NCBI GenBank assembly: GCA_019637795.1
Contig: JAHBUY010000002.1
Location: 969,606-1,033,605 of the forward strand
DNA from: a bacterium
GTDB taxonomy: Bacteria > Desulfobacterota > Binatia > HRBIN30 > CADEER01
DNA length: 64,000 bases
Direction: 5' to 3'
A model generated the notes under the pieces. The model was given only the letters and a program-made list of their open reading frames with translations, searched no databases and was not told the origin of the DNA. This document shows, piece after piece, positions 8,015 through 64,000 of the stretch. How positions within the stretch are numbered: the stretch's first letter is position 1; each line of letters opens with the position of its first letter. Made by a program: the position numbers and the translations under genes.

Positions 8015-8743
8015 CTAGGCCGCCAGCTCGGCGGCGATCTGCGCCCGCACCGTCTCGCGCAGGCGGTCGCGGTCCTCGTACGTCAGGCCGGCGGTGGCGA
8101 TCGGCGGCAGGATCACCAGCTCGGCCGAACCGGGGAGAATCGAGAGATACTGCCCCTTGGGCATGATGCGGGTCGTCCCCTTGCAGACCACGGGGACGAT
8201 GGGGACGCCGAGTTGGATGGCGGCGACGAAGGCGCCCTTGCGGAACGGCAGCAGCTCGCCGTCGGCGCTGCGCGTCCCTTCCGGGAAGATCACCAGCGAG
8301 CCGCCGTCGAGCGTCACCTTCTGCAGCCGCTCGATGGAGGCCAGGGGATCGTCGCGATCGATGGGAATCATCCCCATGGTGCGGAGCACGGCGCCGAGGA
8401 TCGGCTCGGCGAACATCTCGCGCTTGGCGGCGAACCGGGTCACCCCTGGCAGGAGGCCGAGCAGGGCGGCGATGTCGAAGTGGCTCTGGTGGTTGGGTGC
8501 GAAGATGTACGGCCCGGGGCCGAGCTGTTCGCGCCCGCGCACCCGGATGCGCACGCCGCACACCCGCATGAGGTTGCGCGCCTGCAGCTTGGCGAAGCGC
8601 CACGCCAGCGGCCGGCTGATCTGGTACAGGCCGATGGCCACCAGTCCGGACGAGAACAGCATGGCGCGGAAGAGCACGCGGTTGAGGGCGACGCGCAACC
8701 GCGTCGGCTCGGCGGCGCTGACGGCAACGGCATCGGCGGGCAT
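8015..8743 (-). CDS. plsC: 1-acyl-sn-glycerol-3-phosphate acyltransferase (PlsC family)
   Basis: HxxxxD motif (NHQSHFDI) and FPEGTRS motif. The Met (MPADAVAVS) at 8743 was verified. The 30 residues annotated upstream of this Met mirror the neighbouring gene because of a perfect palindrome and are not considered coding. Confidence 0.8.
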   Translation of the reverse strand: MPADAVAVSAAEPTRLRVALNRVLFRAMLFSSGLVAIGLYQISRPLAWRFAKLQARNLMRVCGVRIRVRGREQLGPGPYIFAPNHQSHFDIAALLGLLPGVTRFAAKREMFAEPILGAVLRTMGMIPIDRDDPLASIERLQKVTLDGGSLVIFPEGTRSADGELLPFRKGAFVAAIQLGVPIVPVVCKGTTRIMPKGQYLSILPGSAELVILPPIATAGLTYEDRDRLRETVRAQIAAELAA

Positions 8744-8746
8744 GCG

Positions 8747-8822
8747 GGTAGCAGTATCCAGCGCCCTCCGGCGGGGCAAGATACGCGGCTTGCCCCGCCG
8801 GAGGGCGCTGGATACTGCTACC
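8747..8822. promoter_or_regulatory. perfect 76-bp palindrome (34-bp arms, 8-bp loop) exactly filling the gap between divergent start codons
   Basis: The arm GGTAGCAGTATCCAGCGCCCTCCGGCGGGGCAAG (8747-8780) and the arm 8789-8822 are exact reverse complements. The loop is ATACGCGG. Three nt separate each end from the plsC ATG (8743) and the rSAM GTG (8826). Symmetric GATACT hexamers (-10-like) lie about 10 bp from each start. Confidence 0.6.
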
Positions 8823-8825
8823 GGC

Positions 8826-10178
8826 GTGCGCATCCTCCTCGTATCGCCGACGCACTACAACGCCGACGGCACGTTGCATAAGACGACCCGCTACTGGACC
8901 AGCGGCCTGACGCTGGCGACGCTCAAGGCGCTCACCCCGCCGGGACACGACGTGCGCATGGTCGACGAGCTGTTCCACGACGTCGACCTCGATTTCGACG
9001 GCGACGTCGTCGGCATCACCGCCATGGGACCGCAGATCCGCCGCGCCTACGAGCTCGCCGACCACTTCCGCGGCCGCGGCCGCAAGGTGGTGCTCGGCGG
9101 CACCTGGGTGACGCTCACCGCCGAGGCGTCGCTGCGCCACGCCGACGCCGTGGTCGCCGGCGAGGCCGAATCCGTCTGGCCGCAGGTCCTCGAGGACCTC
9201 GCCGCCGGCCGCAGCCGCGGCATCTACCGCGCCGCCCAGTGGCACGACCTGCGCGGTCTGCCGCGCGTCGATTACACCAGCCTGCCGCTGCTCAAGTACG
9301 ACGCCTTCAAGCGCAGTTGGCTCTACCGCATGTACTTCCACTGGCCGATCGTCTTCTCGCGCGGCTGTCCGCACCCCTGCGAGTACTGCGCCGTGCAGAC
9401 GTTCTACGAGCGCGGCTTCCGCACCCGCCCGGTGGACGAGGTGATCGCCGACCTGGAGGCGATCAAGGCGCTCGGCGCCAACCGCATCCTGTTCCTCGAC
9501 GACAACCCGATCGGCAATCCGACCGCGGCGAAGGAGCTGTTCCGCGCCATGGTTCCGCTGAAGCTGAAGTGGGCCAGCCAGTGCACGATCAACATCGCCC
9601 GCGATCCCGAGCTGCTCGACCTCGCGGCGCGCAGCGGCTGCGTCAGCCTGTCGATCGGCCTCGAGAGCATCAACGAGGACAGCCTCGAGACGATCGGCAA
9701 ACGCTTCAATCAGCCGCGCCGCTTCGACCGCGACCTGGCGGCGATCCGCGCCAAGGGCATCCAGGTGATCGGCCTGCTGATGGTCGGCCTCGACGGCGAC
9801 ACCCTCGATACCTTCCAGCGCTCGCTCGCGTTCCTGATCGACAACAAGGTGTCGTTCCTCAAGCTCTTCACGCCCTGCCCGTACCCCGGCACCAAGTACT
9901 ACGACGACATGCTGGCCGCGGACCGGATCACCATCCAGGACTGGGGCCGCTACGACTACGGCAGCCCGATCATCAAGCCGGCGCAGATGACCGCCGAGGA
10001 GATGATGAGCGGCTTCAAGACCGTCTACGAAGGCTTCTACTCGTCGCGCGCCATCGCCAAGCGCCTCTTCCCCCCGCCCGCCGGCAGCTATCTCGAGACC
10101 CTCGCCTACCTGGTCGCCAACCTGAAGGTGAACCGCTACCTGCGCTCGCACGAGAACGCCTGGGCGACGATCTCGTGA
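8826..10178 (+). CDS. B12-binding (class B) radical SAM enzyme
   Basis: N-terminal cobalamin-binding-like domain (LLVSPTHYN...GITAMGPQ), a CxxxCxxC cluster (CPHPCEYC) and a radical SAM core. A GTG start at 8826 was chosen because the upstream part of the 694-aa ORF is a mirror image of plsC created by the palindrome. Confidence 0.7.
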   Translation: MRILLVSPTHYNADGTLHKTTRYWTSGLTLATLKALTPPGHDVRMVDELFHDVDLDFDGDVVGITAMGPQIRRAYELADHFRGRGRKVVLGGTWVTLTAEASLRHADAVVAGEAESVWPQVLEDLAAGRSRGIYRAAQWHDLRGLPRVDYTSLPLLKYDAFKRSWLYRMYFHWPIVFSRGCPHPCEYCAVQTFYERGFRTRPVDEVIADLEAIKALGANRILFLDDNPIGNPTAAKELFRAMVPLKLKWASQCTINIARDPELLDLAARSGCVSLSIGLESINEDSLETIGKRFNQPRRFDRDLAAIRAKGIQVIGLLMVGLDGDTLDTFQRSLAFLIDNKVSFLKLFTPCPYPGTKYYDDMLAADRITIQDWGRYDYGSPIIKPAQMTAEEMMSGFKTVYEGFYSSRAIAKRLFPPPAGSYLETLAYLVANLKVNRYLRSHENAWATIS

Positions 10179-10208
10179 GAACGGCGCGACGCTCTTGGCT
10201 GACGCGAC

Positions 10209-10372
10209 AAAAGACTTTCACCACGGAGGCACGGAGACACGGAGAGTACTGAGCTCGAAGCCCGCCCAGCGTTCATCCCAACGTTCATTGGAAATGGAGT
10301 GAGAAGAGGCCCCGCGCCTTCGCTGTGGCACCGAGCCCTCCGTGTCTCCGTGCCTCCGTGGTGAGGAGTTTT
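10209..10372. mobile_element. MITE-like inverted-repeat element, copy 1
   Basis: Terminal inverted repeats TTCACCACGGAGGCACGGAGACACGGAG (10217-10244) and its reverse complement (10338-10364) flank a roughly 95-bp core. The same arms recur at 48.8 kb and at the window end. Sits in a convergent intergenic region. Confidence 0.65.
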
Positions 10373-10406
10373 CTGTCTCATCGGCCTGACGGCGGAACAG
10401 CCTCGC

Positions 10407-11726
10407 TCAGAGCTCGCGTAACGTCCCGCGCACCCGGAAGAGCCCGCCGTCGGCGGTGGCGCCGAAACGTCCGCGCGCCGTCGCGTCGTCGAAGCGTCGG
10501 TGGCGCGCCGCCAGCTCGGCGGCGAGCCCGGCGTCGCCGCCGAGCAGGTCGGCGGTGCCGGACATCAGGCGCACGAAGGCGGTGCGCGCCTCGAGCGGTC
10601 CCTCGGGGTTGAGCAGCTTGCGCGCCGTCCAGAAGTACGAGTCGGGATCGGTGTGGTGGTCGTAGAAGAAGTAGAGGAACTGGCGGTAGCGCTCGAAGGC
10701 GGCGCGGTAGCGCCGGTCGTAGTCGGCGAGGGCGTCGGCCGGCGACACGTTCCCGGCCAGCAGGCGCTCGACGGCGCGCGCCGCCAGGTAGCCAGCCATC
10801 GACGCCAGGTGCACGCCCGTGGAGAACACCGGATCGATGAAGCAGGCGGCGTCGCCGGCGAGCAGGTAGCCGGGGCCGTGGAAGGCGCGGCTGTCGTAGG
10901 AGTAATCGCGGATCACCCGCACCGGCGCGACGCGCCGGGCGGCGCGCGTCCGCGCCGCCACCGGCGCGCAGGCGGCGACCAGGCGCTCGTAGAGCGGCGT
11001 CGCGTCGCCGCCCGCCTCGCCGGCGAAACGGGTGGCGTCGACCACCGCGCCGACGCTGGTGGTGCCGTCGTGCAGCGGGATGAACCAGAACCAGCCATCG
11101 GCGAAGGCGGCGGAGAGGATGTTGCCGGCGGTGTCGCCGGCCAGGGGCTCGGCGCCGGTGAAGTAGGAGAAGACCGCCAGGTTCTTGAAGAAGGGATCGA
11201 AGCGACGCTGCCCGTCGCGCCGCCCGAGCAGCGCCTGCTGGCCGCTGGCGTCGATCACCCACGGCGCCCGCGCCTCGACCGCCGCGCCGCGCTCGTCGCG
11301 GGCGGCGACCCGGTTGCACGCGCCGTCGTAGGTCACCGTCTCGACCCGATGCGCCTCGCGGACGTCGACTCCGAGCGCCGCCGCGTGGCGTAGCAGGAGG
11401 TGGTCGAACTCCGCCCGCACGACGTGGAAGGCGTGCGGCCGGCCGCCGGGATCGTCGCGGAAGTAGAAGCTCCACGGTTCGGCGCGCGCCCCCCACACGA
11501 AGGTGCCGCCCGGTTTGCGCACGAACCCGGCCGCCTCGATCGCCGGCAGCACCCCCAGCGCCTCCAGCACCGGCATGGTCGCCGACAGCAGCGACTCGCC
11601 GATGTGGTAGCGCGGAAAGCGCTCGCGCTCGAACAGCAGCACCCGCGCCCCCGCCTGGGCGAGAAACCCGGCCGCGACGCTGCCCGCCGGGCCGCCGCCG
11701 ATGACGATGGCGTCAGCGTCGAGCAT
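10407..11726 (-). CDS. flavin-dependent halogenase (tryptophan-halogenase family)
   Basis: GxGxxG FAD fold (IVIGGGPAGSVAAGFLA) plus the diagnostic WxWxIP motif (GWFWFIPL). The Met (MLDADAIV) at 11726 was verified. The 52 codons upstream are Arg/Gly-rich junk. Confidence 0.8.
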   Translation of the reverse strand: MLDADAIVIGGGPAGSVAAGFLAQAGARVLLFERERFPRYHIGESLLSATMPVLEALGVLPAIEAAGFVRKPGGTFVWGARAEPWSFYFRDDPGGRPHAFHVVRAEFDHLLLRHAAALGVDVREAHRVETVTYDGACNRVAARDERGAAVEARAPWVIDASGQQALLGRRDGQRRFDPFFKNLAVFSYFTGAEPLAGDTAGNILSAAFADGWFWFIPLHDGTTSVGAVVDATRFAGEAGGDATPLYERLVAACAPVAARTRAARRVAPVRVIRDYSYDSRAFHGPGYLLAGDAACFIDPVFSTGVHLASMAGYLAARAVERLLAGNVSPADALADYDRRYRAAFERYRQFLYFFYDHHTDPDSYFWTARKLLNPEGPLEARTAFVRLMSGTADLLGGDAGLAAELAARHRRFDDATARGRFGATADGGLFRVRGTLREL

Positions 11727-11740
11727 GCCGTGCCTTCCGT

Positions 11741-12376
11741 TCAGCGCTTGCGCTTCTTCGCCGGCGCTGGCGTCGGGGCCGCCGCGACCGCCTGCTGCAC
11801 CGGTTCGTTGTTGCTGGGCGCGCCGCCGATGATCGCCGACACCTGACCGTCCGCGCCGAACTTGACCTCGAAGGTCACCCACCGGTTGCGCCAGTAGACC
11901 CAGGTGTCGGCGCTGGTCGATGGCGTGCGGTGGGTCGGCGGATAGCCGAGCGACATCAGCACCTGCTCGCGCGTCATGCCGCGCTCGACGCGGCCGTCAC
12001 GGATGGCCGCCTGCACCGACGGCGAGAACGTCGCGAAGCGCGCGTGCGGGTCGATCTCGACCAGGACCTTGGCGAAGAACTGCTGAGAGGTCTCCTGCTC
12101 CGTCCCGTACGCCTGGGTGAGCGTGACGTTGACGTCGGCGGCGCGAAAGCTCACCGACCTGGCGGTCATGCCCGTGACCGTCGCGGGACTCCCGAACGGC
12201 AGCAGGGCGCCAACCTGATAATTGGCGTCGACCACGTCGGCCGGATTTTCATAGTGGATATTGCAGCACGTGTAGAGCTGCCGCGCCTGCCATTGCTGCA
12301 GAACGCCCGGTGCCACCTTCGCCGCGCAGCCGGCAAGCACGAGCGCCAGCGCCGCGATCGTTCGTCGAAATCGCAT
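11741..12376 (-). CDS. lipoprotein of unknown function
   Basis: Lipobox signal MRFRRTIAALALVLAGCAAK. The Met at 12376 was verified. Ends 15 nt upstream of the halogenase start on the same strand, so likely co-transcribed. Confidence 0.55.
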   Translation of the reverse strand: MRFRRTIAALALVLAGCAAKVAPGVLQQWQARQLYTCCNIHYENPADVVDANYQVGALLPFGSPATVTGMTARSVSFRAADVNVTLTQAYGTEQETSQQFFAKVLVEIDPHARFATFSPSVQAAIRDGRVERGMTREQVLMSLGYPPTHRTPSTSADTWVYWRNRWVTFEVKFGADGQVSAIIGGAPSNNEPVQQAVAAAPTPAPAKKRKR

Positions 12377-47889: not shown

Positions 47890-48792
47890 TCAGGCGCCCG
47901 CGGCGACGCGGTGCAGGAGGTCGGCGATCGCCTCGGGCGCATCCTCCTGCAGGAAGTGTCCGGCGTTGGCGATGGTCACGTGCGCCTGCCCTCGGGCGCC
48001 CGGGATGCGCTCCTGGAAGACCCGCTCGCCGCCGCGCGTCACCGGGTCGGCGTCGCTGAAGGCGGTGACGCAGGGCCGCGTGAACTGCTCGAGCACCCGC
48101 CAGGCGGCCTGGTTCTCGGCCACCGAGGGATGCTGGGGGGTGATCGGAACGAGGGTGGGGAAGCGCCGCGCACCGGCCTTGTAGCGCTCCTCGGGGAACG
48201 GCGCCTCGTAGGCGGCGCGCTCGGCGGCGGTCAGCGGACGCCGGCAGCCCATCGCGATGATGTTGCCGACCGGCAGCTCGGGCACCGACTGGCTGAAGTC
48301 GAGCCACGCCTTGAACGCGTCGCCGAAGCCGGTGCCGACCGGCAGCCCGGTGTTGGCGACGACGAGGCGGGCGAAGCGCTCCGGGAACGCGGCCACCAGG
48401 CGCAGGCCGATGAGGCCGCCCCAGTCCTGGCCGAAGATCGTGATCCGCTGCAGGTTCAGCGCCAGCAGCCAGTCGCTCATCCACCGCACATGCCGCTCGT
48501 AGGTGTAGTCGGCGGCGGCGCTCGGCTTGTCGGAGCGACCGAAGCCGATCAGGTCCGGCGCCACGACGCGGTGCCCGGCGGCCGCCAGGCGGGCGATGAT
48601 GTGGCGATAGAGGAACGACCACGACGGTTCGCCGTGCATGAGCAGGATGGGCGCCGCCTCGCGCGGCCCTTCGTCGATGTAGGCGATGCGCAGCGCCGTG
48701 CCGTCCGCGTCGTGGATCTCGCGGTAGCGCGGCGCGAAGGGAAAGTCGGGCAGATCGCGAAAGCGCGACTCCGGGGTTCGCAACACGTCCAT
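47890..48792 (-). CDS. haloalkane dehalogenase (alpha/beta-hydrolase, DhaA/DhlA-like)
   Basis: [19 protein letters not shown]...[12 protein letters not shown]...GQDWGG nucleophile elbow. High similarity pattern to haloalkane dehalogenases. Start at Met18. Confidence 0.8.
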
Positions 48793-48810
48793 GATTGGCC
48801 TCGATGTGGC

Positions 48811-48975
48811 AGAAATAAGTTCACCACGGAGGCACGGAGACACGGAGGGTACCGCGTCGGGCTGGCTGGTTGGTGGGAATCCGTACGGTCATTGCTGATG
48901 GGGTTGGGATCCCGGCCCCGTGCCCCTCATTCTCCGGGCTGTTCCGCGTCTCCGTGCCTCCGTGGTGAGAGTGCT
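48811..48975. mobile_element. MITE-like inverted-repeat element, copy 2
   Basis: Same 28-bp arms TTCACCACGGAGGCACGGAGACACGGAG (48820-48847) and near-perfect reverse complement (48943-48968, one mismatch). The flanking GACAAAAGCAC motif is shared with copy 1. The core differs. Confidence 0.65.
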
Positions 48976-49096
48976 TTTGTCAGCCCTCGCCGATGTCGCA
49001 AAAGTGGCACCACCAGTGCCACTATGTCAATCGACGCGACCGCGGCTGATCGCCTGCAGGGCCGCGCGGCCGTGACGCTCGCCGCCGGCGGCCGCG

Positions 49097-49540
49097 TCAG
49101 GCGGCGAGCTGGCGCAGCAGCGCGCGCTGCCTGGCGAACATCCGCCGCGCCTCGGCGGGCGAGCGTTCGTGATCGTAGCCGAGGAGGTGGAGGATGCCGT
49201 GGGCGAGGAGGACGCGCACCTCGTCGGCGGCGGTGGCGCCGCGCGCCGCGGCCTGGCGCGCGGCGGTGTCGAGCGAGATCACGACATCGCCCAGCACGTC
49301 GGCGTGGACCGCGGCGTCCTCCCCCTCGCGCAGGGCGAAGGCGAGGACGTCGGTGGGCCGATCCTTGCGGCGCCAGTCGCGATTCAGCGCCTGCATCTCG
49401 GCGTCGCCGACCAGGGCGATGCTGAGCTCGCCGGTGACGCCGAGCAGCGCGAGCGCGCGCCGGGCGTCGCGCCGCACGGCGGCGGCGCGGACGCCGGGAA
49501 CGCGGCGGCGGGCGACCAGGCTGACCGTCGCCGCCGGCAT
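49097..49540 (-). CDS. ybeY: rRNA maturation endoribonuclease YbeY
   Basis: Met at 49540 was verified. HGxLHLxGYDH zinc motif (AHGILHLLGYDHE). Confidence 0.85.
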   Translation of the reverse strand: MPAATVSLVARRRVPGVRAAAVRRDARRALALLGVTGELSIALVGDAEMQALNRDWRRKDRPTDVLAFALREGEDAAVHADVLGDVVISLDTAARQAAARGATAADEVRVLLAHGILHLLGYDHERSPAEARRMFARQRALLRQLAA

Positions 49541-49563
49541 CGATCGACGCGGCGTCGGCGACG

Positions 49564-49992
49564 TCACTTGTACGCGCCGCCGGTCGCCGCCTTCCACTCG
49601 CCGATCACCTGGTCGGTCTCGACCCGATTGTAGATGTCCTCCTGGAACGAGAACTGGCCGTTGCCGGCGTACTCCATGGCGGTGAAGCCGGCGAACTCGA
49701 AGTGGGAGCCGTCGGCGCGGCGGCCGGGCAGGCGGTTGAGCCACTTGTGCACGACGCGGTTGCCGTCGATGCACACCCACTCGACCGGATAGGTCCAGCC
49801 CTTGCAGTACGCCATCACCGGCACCAGCCAATCGAGGATCGCGGCGCGGCCGCGGAAGATGCCGTAGTGGTGCTCGTGGTAGACCGCGTCCTCGGTGAAC
49901 GTGTTGCCGAAACCGGCCCAGTCGTCGGCGTCCTGCAGGGCCATGCGCCGCTGCCAGGCGGCATGGATCTCCTCGCGGCTGAAGGTGCTCAT
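49564..49992 (-). CDS. SnoaL/NTF2-like fold protein
   Basis: Met at 49992 was verified. 142 aa with NTF2-like Trp/Tyr-rich pattern (EIHAAWQRRMALQDADDWAGF...). Confidence 0.55.
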   Translation of the reverse strand: MSTFSREEIHAAWQRRMALQDADDWAGFGNTFTEDAVYHEHHYGIFRGRAAILDWLVPVMAYCKGWTYPVEWVCIDGNRVVHKWLNRLPGRRADGSHFEFAGFTAMEYAGNGQFSFQEDIYNRVETDQVIGEWKAATGGAYK

Positions 49993-50197
49993 GGGGTGTC
50001 GTCCTCCGGCGCCACTTGGTCGCCGCTCCATGCGGCGACGGCTGCATCGTTCACGTCGAAATGGCCGCGATCCCCGACGGTCGTGAATCGGCGGCGGTGG
50101 CGCGCCGCCGCGTCGACCATGGATGGCTCCTCCGTGGCTCCCGCCATCGCCCGCCCCGCCGCCGTTCGTCAAGCGCGGCGCGCGCCGGGCGCGGCGG

Positions 50198-51166
<969 letters not shown>

Positions 51167-51252
51167 CTTTCACCGCAGAGACGCAGAGGCGCGGAGATGC
51201 GGAGCTGCGCCGGAGGCTGCCCGTCTCTGCGCCTCTGCGGTGAAGAACCGTG

Positions 51253-53880
51253 TCACGAGACCAGCTCGACGGCGCGCTGCAGCGCGGCGTCGATCTTCGA
51301 CGCATCGCTGCCGCCGGCCTGGGCGAGCTCGGGGCGGCCGCCGCCCCTGCCGCCGACGATCGGGGCGATCTCGCCCACCAGCTTGCCGGCGTGCACCTGG
51401 CCGGCGAGGTCCTTGGTGACCGCCGCGAGCAGGCGCACCTGCCCGTCGTGGGCGCCGGCGAGGACGACGATCCCGGAGCCGAGCCGCTCGCGGAGCTGGT
51501 CGGCGAGCTCGAGCAGGCGCTTCGGATCCGACTCGTCCACCCGCGCCGCGATCACCGTGCGGCCCTTGATGGTCTGCGCCCGCGACAGCAGGTCGCCGGA
51601 CTGACTGCCGGCCACCTGGCGCTGCAACTGCTGGAGCTGGCGTTCGAGCTGCTTCTGCTGCGCCAGCAGGCGCTCGACGCGCTCGGCGACGTCCTCCTCG
51701 CTGCCGCGCAGCAGCTCGCCGAGCCTGCGCAGCGACTGCTCCGAGGCGCGCACCCATTCGAGCGCGCCGATCCCGGTGATCGCCTCGATGCGGCGCGTGC
51801 CGGCGGCGACGCCGGCCTCGCCGCGCAGCTTGAAGAGGCCGATGTCGCCGGTGCGCCGCACGTGCGTGCCGCCGCACAGCTCGGTGGAGAAGTCGCCCAT
51901 CCGCACCACCCGCACGCGGTCGCCGTACTTGTCGCCGAAGAAGGCGAGGGCGCCGGCCTTGATGGCGGCGTCGTAGGCCATCTCCTCGACCGTCACCTCG
52001 GCGTTCTCGCGGATGTGCGCGTTGACCTCGTCCTCGATGCGCCGCAGCGCCGGCTCGTCGATCGGCGTCGGTTGCGTGAAATCGAAGCGCAGGCGGTCGG
52101 GGGCCACCAGCGACCCGGCCTGGCGGACCTGGTCGCCGAGCACGCGCCGCAGCACGCCGTGCAGGATGTGGGTGACCGAGTGGTTCAGGCGCGTCGCCTC
52201 GCGGCGCTCGCGGTCGACCAGCAGGCGCGCCGTCTGGCCGGTCCGCAGCGCGCCGCGCACCACCGTGCCGACGTGCACGGTGAGGTCGGCCCGCGGTTTC
52301 AGGGTGTCGGTGATCTCCACCAACGCCCCGTCGGCGGTCTCGATGACGCCGCGGTCGCCGACCTGGCCGCCGGACTCGCCGTAGAAGGGGGTCTCGGCGG
52401 CGACGACGTGCACGGTCTCGCCGGCGCGCACTTCGTCGCGCGCCTCGCCGTCAACCGCCAGGGCGGCGATCGGCGACTCGTAGTCGTAGACGCGATCGCC
52501 GACGAAGCGCGACGAGGCGGCGCTGCCGACGATCTGGCCTTCGCCGGCGGCCTTGCGGGCGTCGCGGGCGCGCTGCTTCTGGGCCGCCATCGCCGCCGTG
52601 AAGCCGGCCTGGTCGACGGTGATGCCGTGATCGCGCAGGATGTCCTCGGTCATGTCGACCGGAAAGCCGTAGGTATCGTAGAGCTTGAAGGCGACGTCGC
52701 CGGGCAGGACCGTCTGCCGCGCCTTCTGGAGCGCGGCGCGCTCCTGGGCGAGCAGGGCGAGGCCGCGGTCGAGCGTTTCGGCGAAGCGCTCCTCCTCGCT
52801 GCGCACGACCTCCTCGATGTAGGCGCGGCGCTCGACCAGCTCCGGGTAGGCGCCGCCGAGGACGGCGCAGACCGGCTCCGACATCGCGTAGAGGAACGGC
52901 TGCTCGAAGCCGAGGACGCGGGCGTGCCGCGCGGCGCGGCGCAGGATGCGGCGCAGCACGTAGCCGCGACCCTCGTTTCCCGGCACGACGCCGTCGGCGA
53001 TCATGCAGTTGAGGGCGCGGCTGTGGTCGGCGATGACGCGCATCGCCAGGTCGCTCTCCTCGTCGGCGCCGTAGCGGCGACCGGCTCGCTCCTCGGTGAA
53101 GGCGATGAGGCGGCGGAAGAGGTCGGTGTCGTAGTTCGAGGCGACGTGCTGGAGGACGGCGGTGACGCGCTCGAGGCCCATGCCGGTGTCGACGTGCTTG
53201 CTCTTCAGCTCGACCAGATCGCCGTTCGCCTGCCGGTCGTACTGGATGAACACCAGGTTCCACAGCTCGATGAAGCGCGAGCAGCCGACGTTCACCGCGC
53301 ACTGGTGGCCGGCGACGTGCTGCTTGTCGCAGGCCGCCGGGCCGCGGTCGATGTGGATCTCCGAGCACGGGCCGCACGGACCGGTGTCGCCCATCTCCCA
53401 GAAGTTGTCCTTCTCGTCGAAGCGCAGGACCTGCGCCGGGTCGATGTCGGTCTCGCGCTTCCACAGCGACTCGGCTTCGTCGTCGGTGCGGAAGACGGTC
53501 GCCCACAGCTTGTCCTTGGGCAGCTTCCAGACGTCGGTGAGCAGCTCCCAGGCCCAGGCGATCGCCTCCCGCTTGTAGTACTCGCCGAACGACCAGTTGC
53601 CGAGCATCTCGAACAGCGTGTGGTGGTACGTGTCGCGCCCCACCTCCTCGAGATCGTTGTGCTTGCCGCTCAGCCGCAGGCACTTCTGCGCGCTCGCGGC
53701 GCGCGGATTGGCGCGCTGTTCCTGGCCGAGGAAGACGTTCTTGAACTGCACCATGCCGGCGTTGGTGAACAGCAGGGTCGGGTCGTTGCTCGGCACGATC
53801 GAGGAGCTGCGCACCAGCTCGTGCCCGCGGGCCCGGAAGAACTCGAGAAAACTGCTGCGAACCTCGGCGCCGGTCATCAT
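51253..53880 (-). CDS. alaS: alanine--tRNA ligase
   Basis: Class II motifs, FTNAGMVQFK and a WHCGH-type zinc motif region, editing and C-Ala domains. About 875 aa. Start at tandem Met38/39. Confidence 0.9.
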   Translation of the reverse strand: MMTGAEVRSSFLEFFRARGHELVRSSSIVPSNDPTLLFTNAGMVQFKNVFLGQEQRANPRAASAQKCLRLSGKHNDLEEVGRDTYHHTLFEMLGNWSFGEYYKREAIAWAWELLTDVWKLPKDKLWATVFRTDDEAESLWKRETDIDPAQVLRFDEKDNFWEMGDTGPCGPCSEIHIDRGPAACDKQHVAGHQCAVNVGCSRFIELWNLVFIQYDRQANGDLVELKSKHVDTGMGLERVTAVLQHVASNYDTDLFRRLIAFTEERAGRRYGADEESDLAMRVIADHSRALNCMIADGVVPGNEGRGYVLRRILRRAARHARVLGFEQPFLYAMSEPVCAVLGGAYPELVERRAYIEEVVRSEEERFAETLDRGLALLAQERAALQKARQTVLPGDVAFKLYDTYGFPVDMTEDILRDHGITVDQAGFTAAMAAQKQRARDARKAAGEGQIVGSAASSRFVGDRVYDYESPIAALAVDGEARDEVRAGETVHVVAAETPFYGESGGQVGDRGVIETADGALVEITDTLKPRADLTVHVGTVVRGALRTGQTARLLVDRERREATRLNHSVTHILHGVLRRVLGDQVRQAGSLVAPDRLRFDFTQPTPIDEPALRRIEDEVNAHIRENAEVTVEEMAYDAAIKAGALAFFGDKYGDRVRVVRMGDFSTELCGGTHVRRTGDIGLFKLRGEAGVAAGTRRIEAITGIGALEWVRASEQSLRRLGELLRGSEEDVAERVERLLAQQKQLERQLQQLQRQVAGSQSGDLLSRAQTIKGRTVIAARVDESDPKRLLELADQLRERLGSGIVVLAGAHDGQVRLLAAVTKDLAGQVHAGKLVGEIAPIVGGRGGGRPELAQAGGSDASKIDAALQRAVELVS

Positions 53881-54136
53881 CGGAGGCACGCTAGAGCCGG
53901 GTCGGAGGGAATTCAACGGGGCGCCACGGGTGGACACGGATGGCCACCGATGAACACGGATCCACGAAGAGCACGAACCCCGCCTCCTCACCCCCCCAAT
54001 GCCACGAAGCCCCGCCCAACCCCGGGAGAATGGGACGGGTGGAGTGGGGATTCGTGTTCTTCGTGGCTTCGCCGGCCGGCGGCGGTGCTGACATTGGTCA
54101 TGGCGGACCGGCCGCTCCGCTGCTTGAGATCCCTCG

Positions 54137-62643: not shown

Positions 62644-63891
62644 ATGTCCGAGCCGACGCGGGTCCGCCAGCGGGTGCTCGCGTTCACGCTGACGCTGACC
62701 GCGATCGCCTACCTCGATCGCGTCTGCATCTCGATGGCGGCGCCGGCGATGAAAGCGGAGCTGGCGATCAGCGACGCCCAGATGGGCTGGGTGTTCAGCG
62801 CCTTCACCTTCGCCTACGCGCTGTTCGAGGTGCCGAGCGGCTGGCTCGCCGACCGTTTCGGCGCCCGGCTCATGCTGACCCGCGTCGTCGTCTGGTGGTC
62901 GGCGATGACCGCGGCGACGGGCGCGGTGTGGAGCATCGCCTCGCTGATCGGCGTCCGCTTCCTGTTCGGCATGGGCGAGGCCGGCTGCTTCCCCAGCATG
63001 GCGCGCGCCTATGCGCGCTGGCTGCCCCTGCGCGAGCGCGGGCGCGCCTTCGGTCTGACCCTGATGGCGGGGGCGCTCGGCGGCGCGGCGACCCAGCCGC
63101 TGGTGGTGGCGCTGCTCGAATGGATGCACTGGCGCCACACCTTCATGGTCTTCGGCGTCGTCGGCATGGTCTGGGCGGTGGTCTGGTTCTGGTGGTTCCG
63201 CGACGAACCGCGCGCGCACCCGGGGGTCAATCGGGCCGAGCTGGCATTGATCGGCGCCCAGCCCGCCGATCCCCATCACCACGTGCCCTGGGCGACGCTG
63301 CTGCGCGACCGCAACCTGCTCGCCATCTGCTTCATGTACCTGTTCGCGATCTACGGCTGGTACTTCTACCTCACCTGGCTGCCGACCTACCTGCTGCGGG
63401 CGCGCGGCTTCGACCTCAAACACGTCGGCTGGCTGGCGGCGTTGCCGCTGCTCAGCATCGCCAGCGGCGTCCTGGTCGGCGGCTGGCTGAGCGACGTCCT
63501 GGCGCGGCGCTGGGGCGTGCGGCGCGGCCGCCGCGCGCCCGGCATCGTCGGACTGCCGCTGGCGGCGGTGGCGATCGTCGCCGGCATCGCGACCCCGACG
63601 GCGACCAGCTCGGCGCTGTTCTTCGCCGCGGCCGCGGGCCTGGCCGCGCTCGGCGTCAGCCCGGCCTGGGCCGTCTGCCTCGAGATCGGCGGCCGCCACG
63701 CCGGCGTGGTGAGCGGCGCGATGAACATGTTCGGCAACTTCGGCGGCGCGCTCAGTCCGGTGGTGATCGGCTTCACGCTCGAGCAGGGGGGCGGCTGGAC
63801 GCCGTCGCTGCTCTCGATCGCCGTCTGCTACCTGCTCGCCGCCGGCTGCTGGATGCTGATCGACCCCGAACGCCCGATCGACGGCTGCTGA
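62644..63891 (+). CDS. MFS transporter (anion:cation symporter-like)
   Basis: 12 TM segments. MFS motif region (GWLADRFGARLM). Divergent from the MaoC-SDR-FkbH operon. Confidence 0.8.
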   Translation: MSEPTRVRQRVLAFTLTLTAIAYLDRVCISMAAPAMKAELAISDAQMGWVFSAFTFAYALFEVPSGWLADRFGARLMLTRVVVWWSAMTAATGAVWSIASLIGVRFLFGMGEAGCFPSMARAYARWLPLRERGRAFGLTLMAGALGGAATQPLVVALLEWMHWRHTFMVFGVVGMVWAVVWFWWFRDEPRAHPGVNRAELALIGAQPADPHHHVPWATLLRDRNLLAICFMYLFAIYGWYFYLTWLPTYLLRARGFDLKHVGWLAALPLLSIASGVLVGGWLSDVLARRWGVRRGRRAPGIVGLPLAAVAIVAGIATPTATSSALFFAAAAGLAALGVSPAWAVCLEIGGRHAGVVSGAMNMFGNFGGALSPVVIGFTLEQGGGWTPSLLSIAVCYLLAAGCWMLIDPERPIDGC

Positions 63892-63971
63892 TCCGCGCCG
63901 CCGCCCGCCCGGGCGGGTGCCGAGGGTCGGCAGCGGAGCGCGGGCGCAGTCGTGAAACGAACCTCGAGACG

Positions 63972-64000
63972 ACAAGCACCTTCACCACGGAGGCACGGAG
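63972..64000. mobile_element. MITE-like inverted-repeat element, copy 3 (left arm only, truncated by window end)
   Basis: GACAAGCACCTTCACCACGGAGGCACGGAG matches the flank and arm of copies 1 and 2. Confidence 0.5.

Follow-up and report, generated by a model that had tools for sequence, protein, structure and literature searches.

The window, by which we mean the whole 64-kb stretch of DNA analysed here, has a G+C content of 72% and carries palindromic elements at four places, numbered 1 to 4 (Table 1). All four are intergenic according to Pfam annotation, in agreement with the preliminary description of this DNA, which had placed non-coding copies between genes. Element 1 is flanked by the stop codons (10178 and 10407) of two convergent genes, one for a B12-binding radical-SAM protein and one for a halogenase-like FAD enzyme, and element 2 separates two minus-strand genes, with the stop codon of ybeY at 49097 and the start codon (ATG) of an alpha/beta-hydrolase gene at 48792. 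Element 4 fills the alaS-phoH spacer, between the alaS stop codon at 51253 and the phoH ATG, which ends at 51166 and abuts the arm of the element. Element 3 starts about 77 nt past the stop codon (63891) of an MFS transporter gene; a short-read contig with the same MFS gene stops 2 nt beyond that stop codon. The nearest named relatives of the PhoH and halogenase proteins of the window come from metagenome-assembled genomes (MAGs) labelled Candidatus Binatia, 'Myxococcota' and 'Deltaproteobacteria'.

Table 1 Elements and arm matches in the window, and inter-arm cores with the gene for the ~125-aa protein at other loci.
Feature	Position in window	Strand	Core length	Lineage	Description
Element 1	10206..10377	.	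93 nt		complete gene-less palindrome; left arm 10206-10244, core 10245-10337, right arm 10338-10377
Element 1, first arm, 28-mer	10217-10244	+			0 mismatches
Element 1, second arm, 28-mer	10338-10365	-			1 mismatch
Element 2	48808..48981	.	94 nt		complete gene-less palindrome; left arm 48808-48847, right arm 48942-48981
Element 2, first arm, 28-mer	48820-48847	+			0 mismatches
Element 2, second arm, 28-mer	48942-48969	-			3 mismatches
Element 3	63968..64000	+			left arm only (GACGACAAGCACC TTCACCACGGAGGCACGGAG), ended by window edge
Element 3, fifth arm of the window	63981-64000				ended by window edge
Element 4	51167..51247	.			short hairpin with CGCAGAG/CGCGGAG words; same grammar; found by repeat search
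L069			598 nt	Dehalococcoidia	intact ~125-aa protein
L080			502 nt	Terriglobales	intact ~125-aa protein
L026			431 nt	Sulfotelmatobacter	intact ~125-aa protein
L021				Planctomycetota	decayed copy of the gene for the ~125-aa protein

Two complete arm pairs and one cut arm were recovered with the 28-nt sequence TTCACCACGGAGGCACGGAGACACGGAG, matches to which had a mean of 0.00 in 100 dinucleotide shuffles, confirming the earlier proposal of a dispersed arm family with at least three copies in the window. Element 4, which is absent from that description, is built on other words and reads TTCACC-GCAGAGA-CGCAGAGG-CGCGGAG...CTCTGCGCCTCTGCGGTGAA. The arms in the window are about 30-40 nt long and consist of an A-rich outer tract, TTCACC and then three to four 8-nt words, namely CACGGAG plus one base (N), or CGCAGAG plus one base in element 4, and all of them fit the grammar TTCACC + (7-nt word ending in AG + 1-3-nt spacer) x 3-5. 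The tandem CACGGAG repeat reported before is real, but its period is 8 nt (CACGGAG and one spacer base, three times) and it is not a pure heptad. The outer flanks, previously described as shared, are alike only loosely (GACAAAAGAC, GACAGAAAAC, GGCAGAAATAAG, GACAAAAGCAC and GACGACAAGCAC): among 186 arms from many genomes, conservation is limited to wTT-CACC-(ACGGAGN)x3-AA and information falls outside it, with a weak A-rich tract at positions -11 to -4 outside the arm. These looser outer parts (GACAAAAGnnnTT and variants) extend elements 1 and 2 to the limits given in Table 1. The cores of the two elements share no similarity with each other, as had been stated, nor with 40 other cores. Folding as RNA gave predicted energies of -95.8 kcal/mol for element 1 (z -9.4 versus shuffles), -86.6 kcal/mol for element 2 (z -6.4) and -52.8 kcal/mol for element 4 (z -4.3), the predicted fold of element 4 pairing the sequence directly before the phoH ATG. 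The purine-rich strand of the arm is stop-free in all frames and public gene calls read it as a peptide MIHHGDTE..., which bears out the suspicion that spurious ORFs traverse the arms.

In a search of one genome per species, the exact 26-mer of the arm was found in at least 120 loci, which represent eight or more phylum-level lineages, so that the arm is neither confined to three loci nor a duplicated gene fragment, as would have spoken against a dispersed repeat. Among the matches listed, the carriers belong to Acidobacteriota (Terriglobia, Blastocatellia), Planctomycetota (Phycisphaerae, Planctomycetia), Chloroflexota (Chloroflexia, Dehalococcoidia), Nitrospirota, Verrucomicrobiota/Lentisphaeria, Alphaproteobacteria and Actinomycetota MAGs; the G+C content of the loci ranges from 51 to 74% and several of them lie on megabase contigs. 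An inverted partner within 900 nt was present for 75 of 131 arms, giving 66 distinct hairpins with a CACC-to-GGTG span of 58-598 nt and a loop length that varies continuously from 12 nt upward, and the other 56 arms (about 40%) are solo arms without a partner within that distance. Arms of the general grammar occur at a density of 109 per Mb in the window and about 46 per Mb in other arm-bearing genomes, seed neighbourhoods excluded, versus none in shuffled sequence. The exact arm sequences were not found in 8 million papers of the searchable open-access literature, and a BLAST search of element 1 against plasmids gave no match, to which low-complexity masking may contribute. Unbiased clustering of the ORFs near arms in 120 loci, where most gene calls rest on a crude ORF rule, returned only ABC transporters and dcw genes as recurrent clusters, because the loci concerned are orthologous.

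Within the arm-selected DNA (about 0.93 Mb, comprising the first 120 loci and the window), the longest inter-arm cores encode a conserved protein of about 125 aa (L069, L080 and L026; Table 1). The three intact proteins match PDDEXK_3 (PF13366, E ~1e-41) and the NCBIfam family TIGR04256 'GxxExxY protein', and together with the decayed copy in L021, whose core is also among the four longest, they are the only GxxExxY ORFs in this DNA, all of them lying exactly between arms. Gene-less hairpins far outnumber the gene-bearing ones (62 of 66), and some inter-arm cores hold other small ORFs.

The association was then approached in reverse, from the protein to the arms. Eighty metagenomic loci were chosen by protein similarity alone, and the two 200-nt flanks of the gene were searched for their best mutual inverted repeat, with a score of at least 26 as the cut-off. 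Among these loci, which are the best 80 of at least 591 confirmed relatives and represent the closest relatives of the three seed proteins, not a whole-family sample, a flanking inverted repeat reaching the cut-off was observed in 69 of 77 testable cases, compared to 1 of 90 shifted control windows. The word-arm grammar, in which three to five words, each spaced by 1-3 nt, come after TTCACC, flanks 65 of the 77 protein-selected genes. Typing of these 65 cassettes gave CACGGAG (28), CACAGAG (15) and CGCNGAG (14) as the arm words, with CACAAAG, CACGAAG and CAGTGAG being rarer. The left arm of one cassette (L187) holds the 28-mer of the window exactly, an AT-rich relative with 49% protein identity has CACCAAG/CACAAAG arms, and one further GxxExxY relative is flanked by an unrelated GC-rich repeat. 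The comparison shows, at the level of sequence, that the hairpins in the window belong to the arm family that brackets GxxExxY genes. Protein identity is 63.7% within an arm word type and 60.1% between types (permutation p <= 0.0005), a small excess. The two arms of a cassette co-vary and stay complementary: 92.6% of the positions pair versus 85.7% in shuffles, both-side changes amount to 82 cells versus 32.4 expected, and compensatory change is present in 11 of 20 arm pairs, each of these observed values being reached in 0 of 500 shuffles, while slid controls of the pairing gave only 33-51% paired positions.

The GxxExxY family is very large, with 22,821 representative clusters (50% identity) at E <= 1e-3 and 8,490 at 1e-10, and PF13366 is listed with unknown function and 'multiple transfers' between divisions (PMC3424549). 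Among 38 close homologues there is no variation at the putative catalytic residues (D79, E89 and K91) or in the G36..E39..Y42 motif; in 65 more diverse homologues G36, L37 and E39 are invariant and the other motif and putative catalytic residues are at least 90% conserved. An AlphaFold2 model based on a 65-sequence alignment has a pLDDT of 91.7, the arm-encoded N-terminus excepted. No fold match in the PDB was obtained at E <= 0.001. The best match, a weak one, is the Holliday-junction resolvase Hjc (2wiw_A; E 3.8e-3, TM 0.42/0.47), and the other weak matches are Cas4, alkaline exonuclease, MGME1, tRNA-splicing endonuclease and I-Bth0305I, all of which are PD-(D/E)XK nucleases. No GxxExxY relatives were found in viral contigs, PADLOC gave a weak Cas4 match only and PHROGs gave no match; the GxxExxY protein does not belong to the known defence or phage families.

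The order within a cassette is arm, about 15-16 nt, the GxxExxY ORF of about 125 aa, about 7 nt and the inverted arm, with a median span of 462 nt, where the gap on the left (about 16 nt) is measured to the conserved protein region and that on the right (about 7 nt) from the stop codon. The GxxExxY gene runs in the direction of its upstream neighbour in 42 of 46 cases and in that of its downstream neighbour in 43 of 49; both neighbours are on the strand of the GxxExxY gene in 26 cassettes and on the opposite strand in none. The median gaps between arm and neighbour are 3 and 5 nt, so that the cassettes sit flush with the stop and start codons of the host. According to database gene calls, one cassette lies inside a leucine-catabolism operon between carboxyltransferase and HMG-CoA-lyase genes, its left arm beginning at the upstream stop codon (ACATGA followed directly by TTCACC...) and the downstream start being at most about 5 nt past the right arm. 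A cassette is present at this same carboxyltransferase/HMG-CoA-lyase site in about ten metagenomic loci, and no empty hairpin was found at the site (MCCase/HMG-CoA-lyase) among the arm-selected loci. An in-frame start codon is located a median of 14 nt past the last GGAG/GAG arm word in 47 of 65 cassettes; in 17 of the 65 there is no start codon other than one ahead of or within the arm, which is therefore translated.

Orthologous junctions were compared for gain, loss and persistence of the elements. At alaS-phoH, the relative L209 (PhoH 94% identical) carries a CGCAGAG hairpin like that in the window, with an unrelated loop and a compensatory C:G to A:T change (CACC/GGTG versus CAAC/GTTG). 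The hairpin is missing from L210/L211 (PhoH 92% identical) and L212 (90%), where PhoH has 8-12 additional codons and its start overlaps the alaS stop codon. The spacer between the halogenase and radical-SAM genes measures 228 nt in the window versus 6 nt in L216 (88% identical), and all of element 1, core included, is therefore extra DNA; in L213 this spacer has 65 nt and a hairpin of a different word type. Judged from these junctions, elements 1 and 4 are shown to be insertions relative to close relatives. In Terriglobales genomes, elements persist at mraY-murD and murD-ftsW in the dcw cluster, where the flanking genes are 72-82% identical, and at these orthologous junctions the arms are kept, with anything between them from a loop of about 20 nt to a core of more than 300 nt. 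Directly ahead of ftsW, some of the conserved arms are solo, a hint that they serve the host.

All cassette pairs with at least 77% DNA identity share their flanks and therefore represent orthologous sites and vertical inheritance, and no recent movement or fresh transposition was seen among the cassette pairs compared. Given both the differences at junctions and the long persistence, turnover is real but slow. Among orthologous sites, none was found whose hairpin is empty in one genome but holds the gene in another. Target-site duplications, for which a check had been recommended in the preliminary description, were not detected, the longest direct match averaging 4.31 nt versus 4.23 +/- 0.11 nt in controls (25-nt flanks, 65 hairpins); a listing of the junctions revealed no consistent short repeat, and a duplication of 2-4 bp would be compatible with it. 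An ATGATT repeat at one operon junction was considered as a duplication and did not generalise.

A search with hmmsearch found no GxxExxY ORF in the 64-kb window, and the cores in the window contain no remnant of a nuclease gene at the protein or DNA level and are also unlike cassette interiors. Short tblastn matches of the window elements to GxxExxY proteins arise because arm-encoded peptides are included in over-extended ORFs. The copies in the window, about four in number (elements 1, 2 and 4 and the cut element 3), are therefore gene-less members of the family. As the window has no GxxExxY gene, a cognate nuclease is assumed to exist in the source genome, and it is probable that the window copies are non-autonomous members made, spread or kept by such a GxxExxY nuclease encoded elsewhere. 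They may be cassettes that lost or never had the gene, or arm pairs copied alone. The nuclease would act on the palindrome at the DNA level, where an extruded cruciform or hairpin is a plausible substrate, and repair with the arms as homology would follow. Because the elements lie inside transcription units, the mRNA would gain a stem of 25-35 bp, which RNase III could cut or which could mask a neighbouring start codon; such an effect on the RNA would be incidental or secondarily co-opted and not the reason for sequence conservation across phyla. The solo arms, the persistence of elements at dcw junctions, the cores in the window free of gene remnants, the small excess of protein identity within word types, the weakness of the fold similarity to Hjc and the absence of recent movement among the compared cassettes are counted against this non-autonomous-copy reading. 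The physical linkage would also fit arms that help to express the gene between them, with the GGAG words as its ribosome-binding site, in place of an action of the nuclease on the arms.

More tentatively, the GxxExxY proteins could be the nucleases of an unrecognised class of mobile or selfish element, a minimal palindrome cassette dwelling in operons that would spread through structure-specific cutting of its own palindrome, use no transposase of a known class, make no target duplication and leave many gene-less hairpins behind, those in the window among them. In a more extreme version, the nuclease would act on RNA, excising the stem-bounded cassette from the operon transcript like an intron. 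ORF-carrying intervening sequences (IVS) of 23S rRNA, such as S23p in Coxiella burnetii (PMC4990558), resemble the cassettes in being compact selfish-looking inserts of about 430-460 nt with complementary ends, in which a long stem surrounds one small ORF that is transcribed only within the host transcript. Unlike the cassettes, which lie between protein genes and encode a different protein family, these IVS are located in rRNA helices and are excised by RNase III, and a consensus query for the four-helix-bundle gene of 23S IVS had no match in the loci analysed.

It is rather unlikely that the order of events was the reverse, with the hairpins coming first and the gene being a guest. A homing-type GxxExxY nuclease would then cut the centre of an empty palindrome and be copied into the loop by arm-homology repair, and the window copies would be uninvaded targets. 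This would fit the gene being always exactly bracketed by arms, empty hairpins being far commoner, the loop at one orthologous site varying from about 20 nt to more than 300 nt with other small ORFs in some cores, and the lack of a detectable target-site duplication; in addition, the homing endonuclease I-Bth0305I is among the weak fold matches, and the sense orientation of the gene could stem from selection for read-through expression. Free-standing or intron-borne PD-(D/E)XK homing endonuclease genes (I-Bth0305I, I-Ssp6803I) are like GxxExxY genes in being small, in sharing the fold superfamily, in occupying precise recurring sites and in a patchy distribution across phyla that suggests horizontal transfer (PMC3424549). 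Unlike them, the GxxExxY cassettes have no intron or intein context, and the target would be a dispersed palindrome, not a unique site in a gene. Moreover, the missing pair of empty and filled orthologous hairpins argues against a guest gene, 30-nt arms offer little length for recombinational repair, and both the spread of empty hairpins and the sharing of their sequence across phyla would be left unexplained. As to the gene-less copies themselves, they may be either derivatives or uninvaded targets. An immobile structure in RNA or DNA selected by the host, acting as an operon-internal RNase III site, mRNA stabiliser, translational gate or bidirectional terminator, is an improbable origin of the elements. 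The very stable predicted stems, the position flush with stop and start codons, the persistence at orthologous junctions across genera (solo arms before ftsW included) and the pairing by element 4 of the region directly before the phoH ATG would all be expected of it, but 26-nt identity across phyla of 51-74% G+C would be unexpected for a signal made of structure only, and the corresponding junction in close relatives is without the element. Neither terminators nor promoters turned up in consensus scans of any of the elements; an intrinsic bidirectional terminator was rejected since no U tract directly follows the stem, the TTTT of the outer arm lying 5-7 nt beyond GGTG and being itself paired with the A tract. 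Rfam gave nothing at the gathering threshold in the window and, at E <= 1, only chance-level matches for element 1 (E ~0.5). G.U/A.C mismatches have no strand bias with respect to transcription (25 sense, 31 antisense) in a test of low power, many mismatches being swapped spacer bases in pairs, and give no sign of selection on a single RNA strand.

In the preliminary description, the elements had been likened to REP and MITE families, and an IS200/IS605 or REP-associated tyrosine transposase was suggested as the partner. A GTAG or CGTC tag marks REP families, and in Acidobacteria there are tyrosine transposases between long inverted repeats (PMC3733652); Planctomycetes and Acidobacteria also have a class 3 Y1 family, to which about 600 structures in Solibacter usitatus are linked (PMC6006769). 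REP/REPIN-RAYT systems (PMC3733652, PMC3116915) share with the elements their short, intergenic, multi-copy and hairpin-forming nature without detectable target duplication, their location between co-directional or convergent genes and their persistence at orthologous sites, and the 'REPtron' is like the cassette in that the repeats themselves bracket a single-copy-type gene and non-coding copies outnumber gene-bearing ones. Unlike REPs, which consist of two short palindromes and are largely lineage-specific, the elements form one long stem of 8-nt words, have arms near-identical across phyla and loops from 12 nt to a whole gene, and bracket a PD-(D/E)XK nuclease, not a Y1 HuH enzyme. Neither tag is present in the consensus of 186 arms, which does not support the suggested likeness to REP in this respect, and a single arm, beginning wTT-CACC, is not self-complementary. 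A Y1 HuH motif, searched with a regular expression, had no match in 4557 ORFs from the ~0.93 Mb of arm-selected DNA, and no transposase recurs near arms in 120 loci. The structures associated with class 3 Y1 transposases (Quentin et al.) were rejected as relatives given that their sequence C[AG]GAGCCGCGACCGTAAGGGAGCG differs from the arm, as were the TIRYT repeats, whose published GGGGWSAS motif is absent from the arms. It is quite improbable that these are REP/REPIN-type repeats moved by a HuH enzyme (RAYT, TIRYT or class 3 TnpA-Y1) encoded elsewhere, with an incidental link to GxxExxY; intergenic hairpins without target-site duplication and the known Y1 transposases in Acidobacteria and Planctomycetes would agree with it, but the linkage in 69 of 77 loci would be unexplained, and the linked gene encodes a GxxExxY nuclease instead of the tyrosine transposase that had been proposed. 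Bacterial MITEs (Correia/NEMIS, RUP, ERIC and Nezha) are like the elements in having terminal inverted repeats, a length of about 150 nt, no coding capacity, a position next to genes, co-transcription into stable stems and a longer gene-bearing relative with the same ends. A target-site duplication is a defining feature of a MITE, and MITE copies normally share their cores. The term MITE-like therefore holds for the elements in part: the inverted repeats, the non-coding nature, the gene-bearing form with the same arms and the element-less junctions in relatives agree with it, but no duplication was detected, internal sequence is not common to the copies and the gene-bearing relative has no recognised transposase. 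A classical MITE, that is, an internally deleted IS moved by a DDE transposase that recognises terminal inverted repeats, is very improbable, even if the 28-40-nt inverted repeats at the ends, the overall size of about 145-175 nt and the lack of coding capacity would suit it, since no IS with these ends was found among recurrent ORFs or plasmids and loop length is continuous from 12 nt up, in addition to the undetected duplication and the unrelated cores.

We found no paper in the searchable open-access literature that links the GxxExxY family to repeats or palindromic arms, and the connection between these arms and GxxExxY genes appears to be undescribed there. To our knowledge, only tyrosine HuH and DDE enzymes have been implicated so far in the REP/MITE field, to which GxxExxY proteins would add a candidate enzyme class if the link holds. 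It would also give a first functional context to PF13366/TIGR04256, a very large family without assigned function, and account for intergenic hairpins common to soil and sediment bacteria of many phyla, as well as for an annotation artefact, in which hypothetical proteins or over-long N-termini read HGDTEAR or SVSPW through the arms. The 30-nt arm hairpin and the 125-aa protein are simple test substrates. For assembly, the arms flag likely break points in short-read data. In the source genome, the elements alter operon junctions, as at alaS-phoH, where an 81-nt hairpin together with a new start codon takes the place of the overlapping stop and start.

Among the 66 hairpins collected from the window and from the loci carrying an exact 26-mer arm (L001-L120), the lengths of the gene-less ones were bimodal, falling at 58-91 nt and about 138-158 nt. 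Both complete copies in the window (145-146 nt) belong to the longer group, despite having cores unrelated in sequence. Relatives of the window organism also carry hairpins at gene junctions that are built from other words, GTCAGC/GCTGAC, CGCCAGGA, CACAAAG and CACAGAG, and periodic-word palindromes may therefore be a class broader than the GxxExxY-linked arms.

Further small ORFs lie within or adjoining arm pairs at dcw junctions, namely one of 91 AA residues without a Pfam match and one of approximately 130 AA residues that resembles a secreted protein; the arms may bracket cargo besides GxxExxY. Among the GxxExxY proteins themselves, when clustered at 50%, the representatives with the highest scores (P0121-P0130) are 240-295 AA residues in length and contain two tandem GxxExxY domains; they may represent genuine fusions or result from reading through neighbouring cassettes. 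In one Terriglobales genome (L105), a second small insert of about 30 nt (CCCTTCGGCaTCGCTCAGGGCAGGCTCCGA) was present within a CACGGAG/CACAGAG arm at two different dcw junctions, pointing to a further element nested within the arms. Several genomes retain a solo right arm (CTCCGTGTCTCCGTGCCTCCGTGGTGAAATGAAnTTCCCATGG) directly 5' of the start of ftsW, its partner arm being absent or distant, and many right arms are followed by AAATGA.

Near element 3, the left arm at the window's end, a Logan short-read contig of 10131 nt (L217) stops 2 nt past the stop codon of an MFS gene identical to that of the window. Comparison with window 63891-64000 places the contig end about 75 nt short of element 3, consistent with an assembly break near this repeat.

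Mechanically called ORFs in this high-GC window were too long at the 5' end for alaS, ybeY, the halogenase and the radical-SAM gene. The last of these probably begins at GTG 8827 (VRILLVSPTHYNADG), and just 5' of this codon lies a near-perfect palindrome that is distinct from the word-arm elements. It reads GCATGCGGGTAGCAGTATCCAGCGCCCTCCGGCGGGGCAAG..., with arms of 41 nt (95% complementary) and a loop of 8 nt, contains GTAG within its left arm, and occurs once in the window.

Coordinates of hairpins, arms, small ORFs and over-extended ORFs
Feature	Sequence	Position	Remark
Other-word hairpin	L213	4342-4406
Other-word hairpin	L215	4345-4459
Other-word hairpin	L210	7969-8033
Other-word hairpin	L212	7362-7433
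Small ORFs at dcw-junction arms	L074	2984-3353
Small ORFs at dcw-junction arms	L099	2962-3612
Insert in arm	L105	5230-5300, 6795-6850
Solo right arm before ftsW	L099	3600-3660
Solo right arm before ftsW	L101	6930-6965
Solo right arm before ftsW	L105	5225-5262
Solo right arm before ftsW	L081	2503-2535
Palindrome	window	8740-8829
alaS ORF	window	51253-53991	912 aa vs 875 in relatives
ybeY ORF	window	49097-50047	316 aa vs about 135-165
Halogenase ORF	window	10407-11882	491 aa vs 439
Radical-SAM ORF	window	8094-10178	5' over-extended
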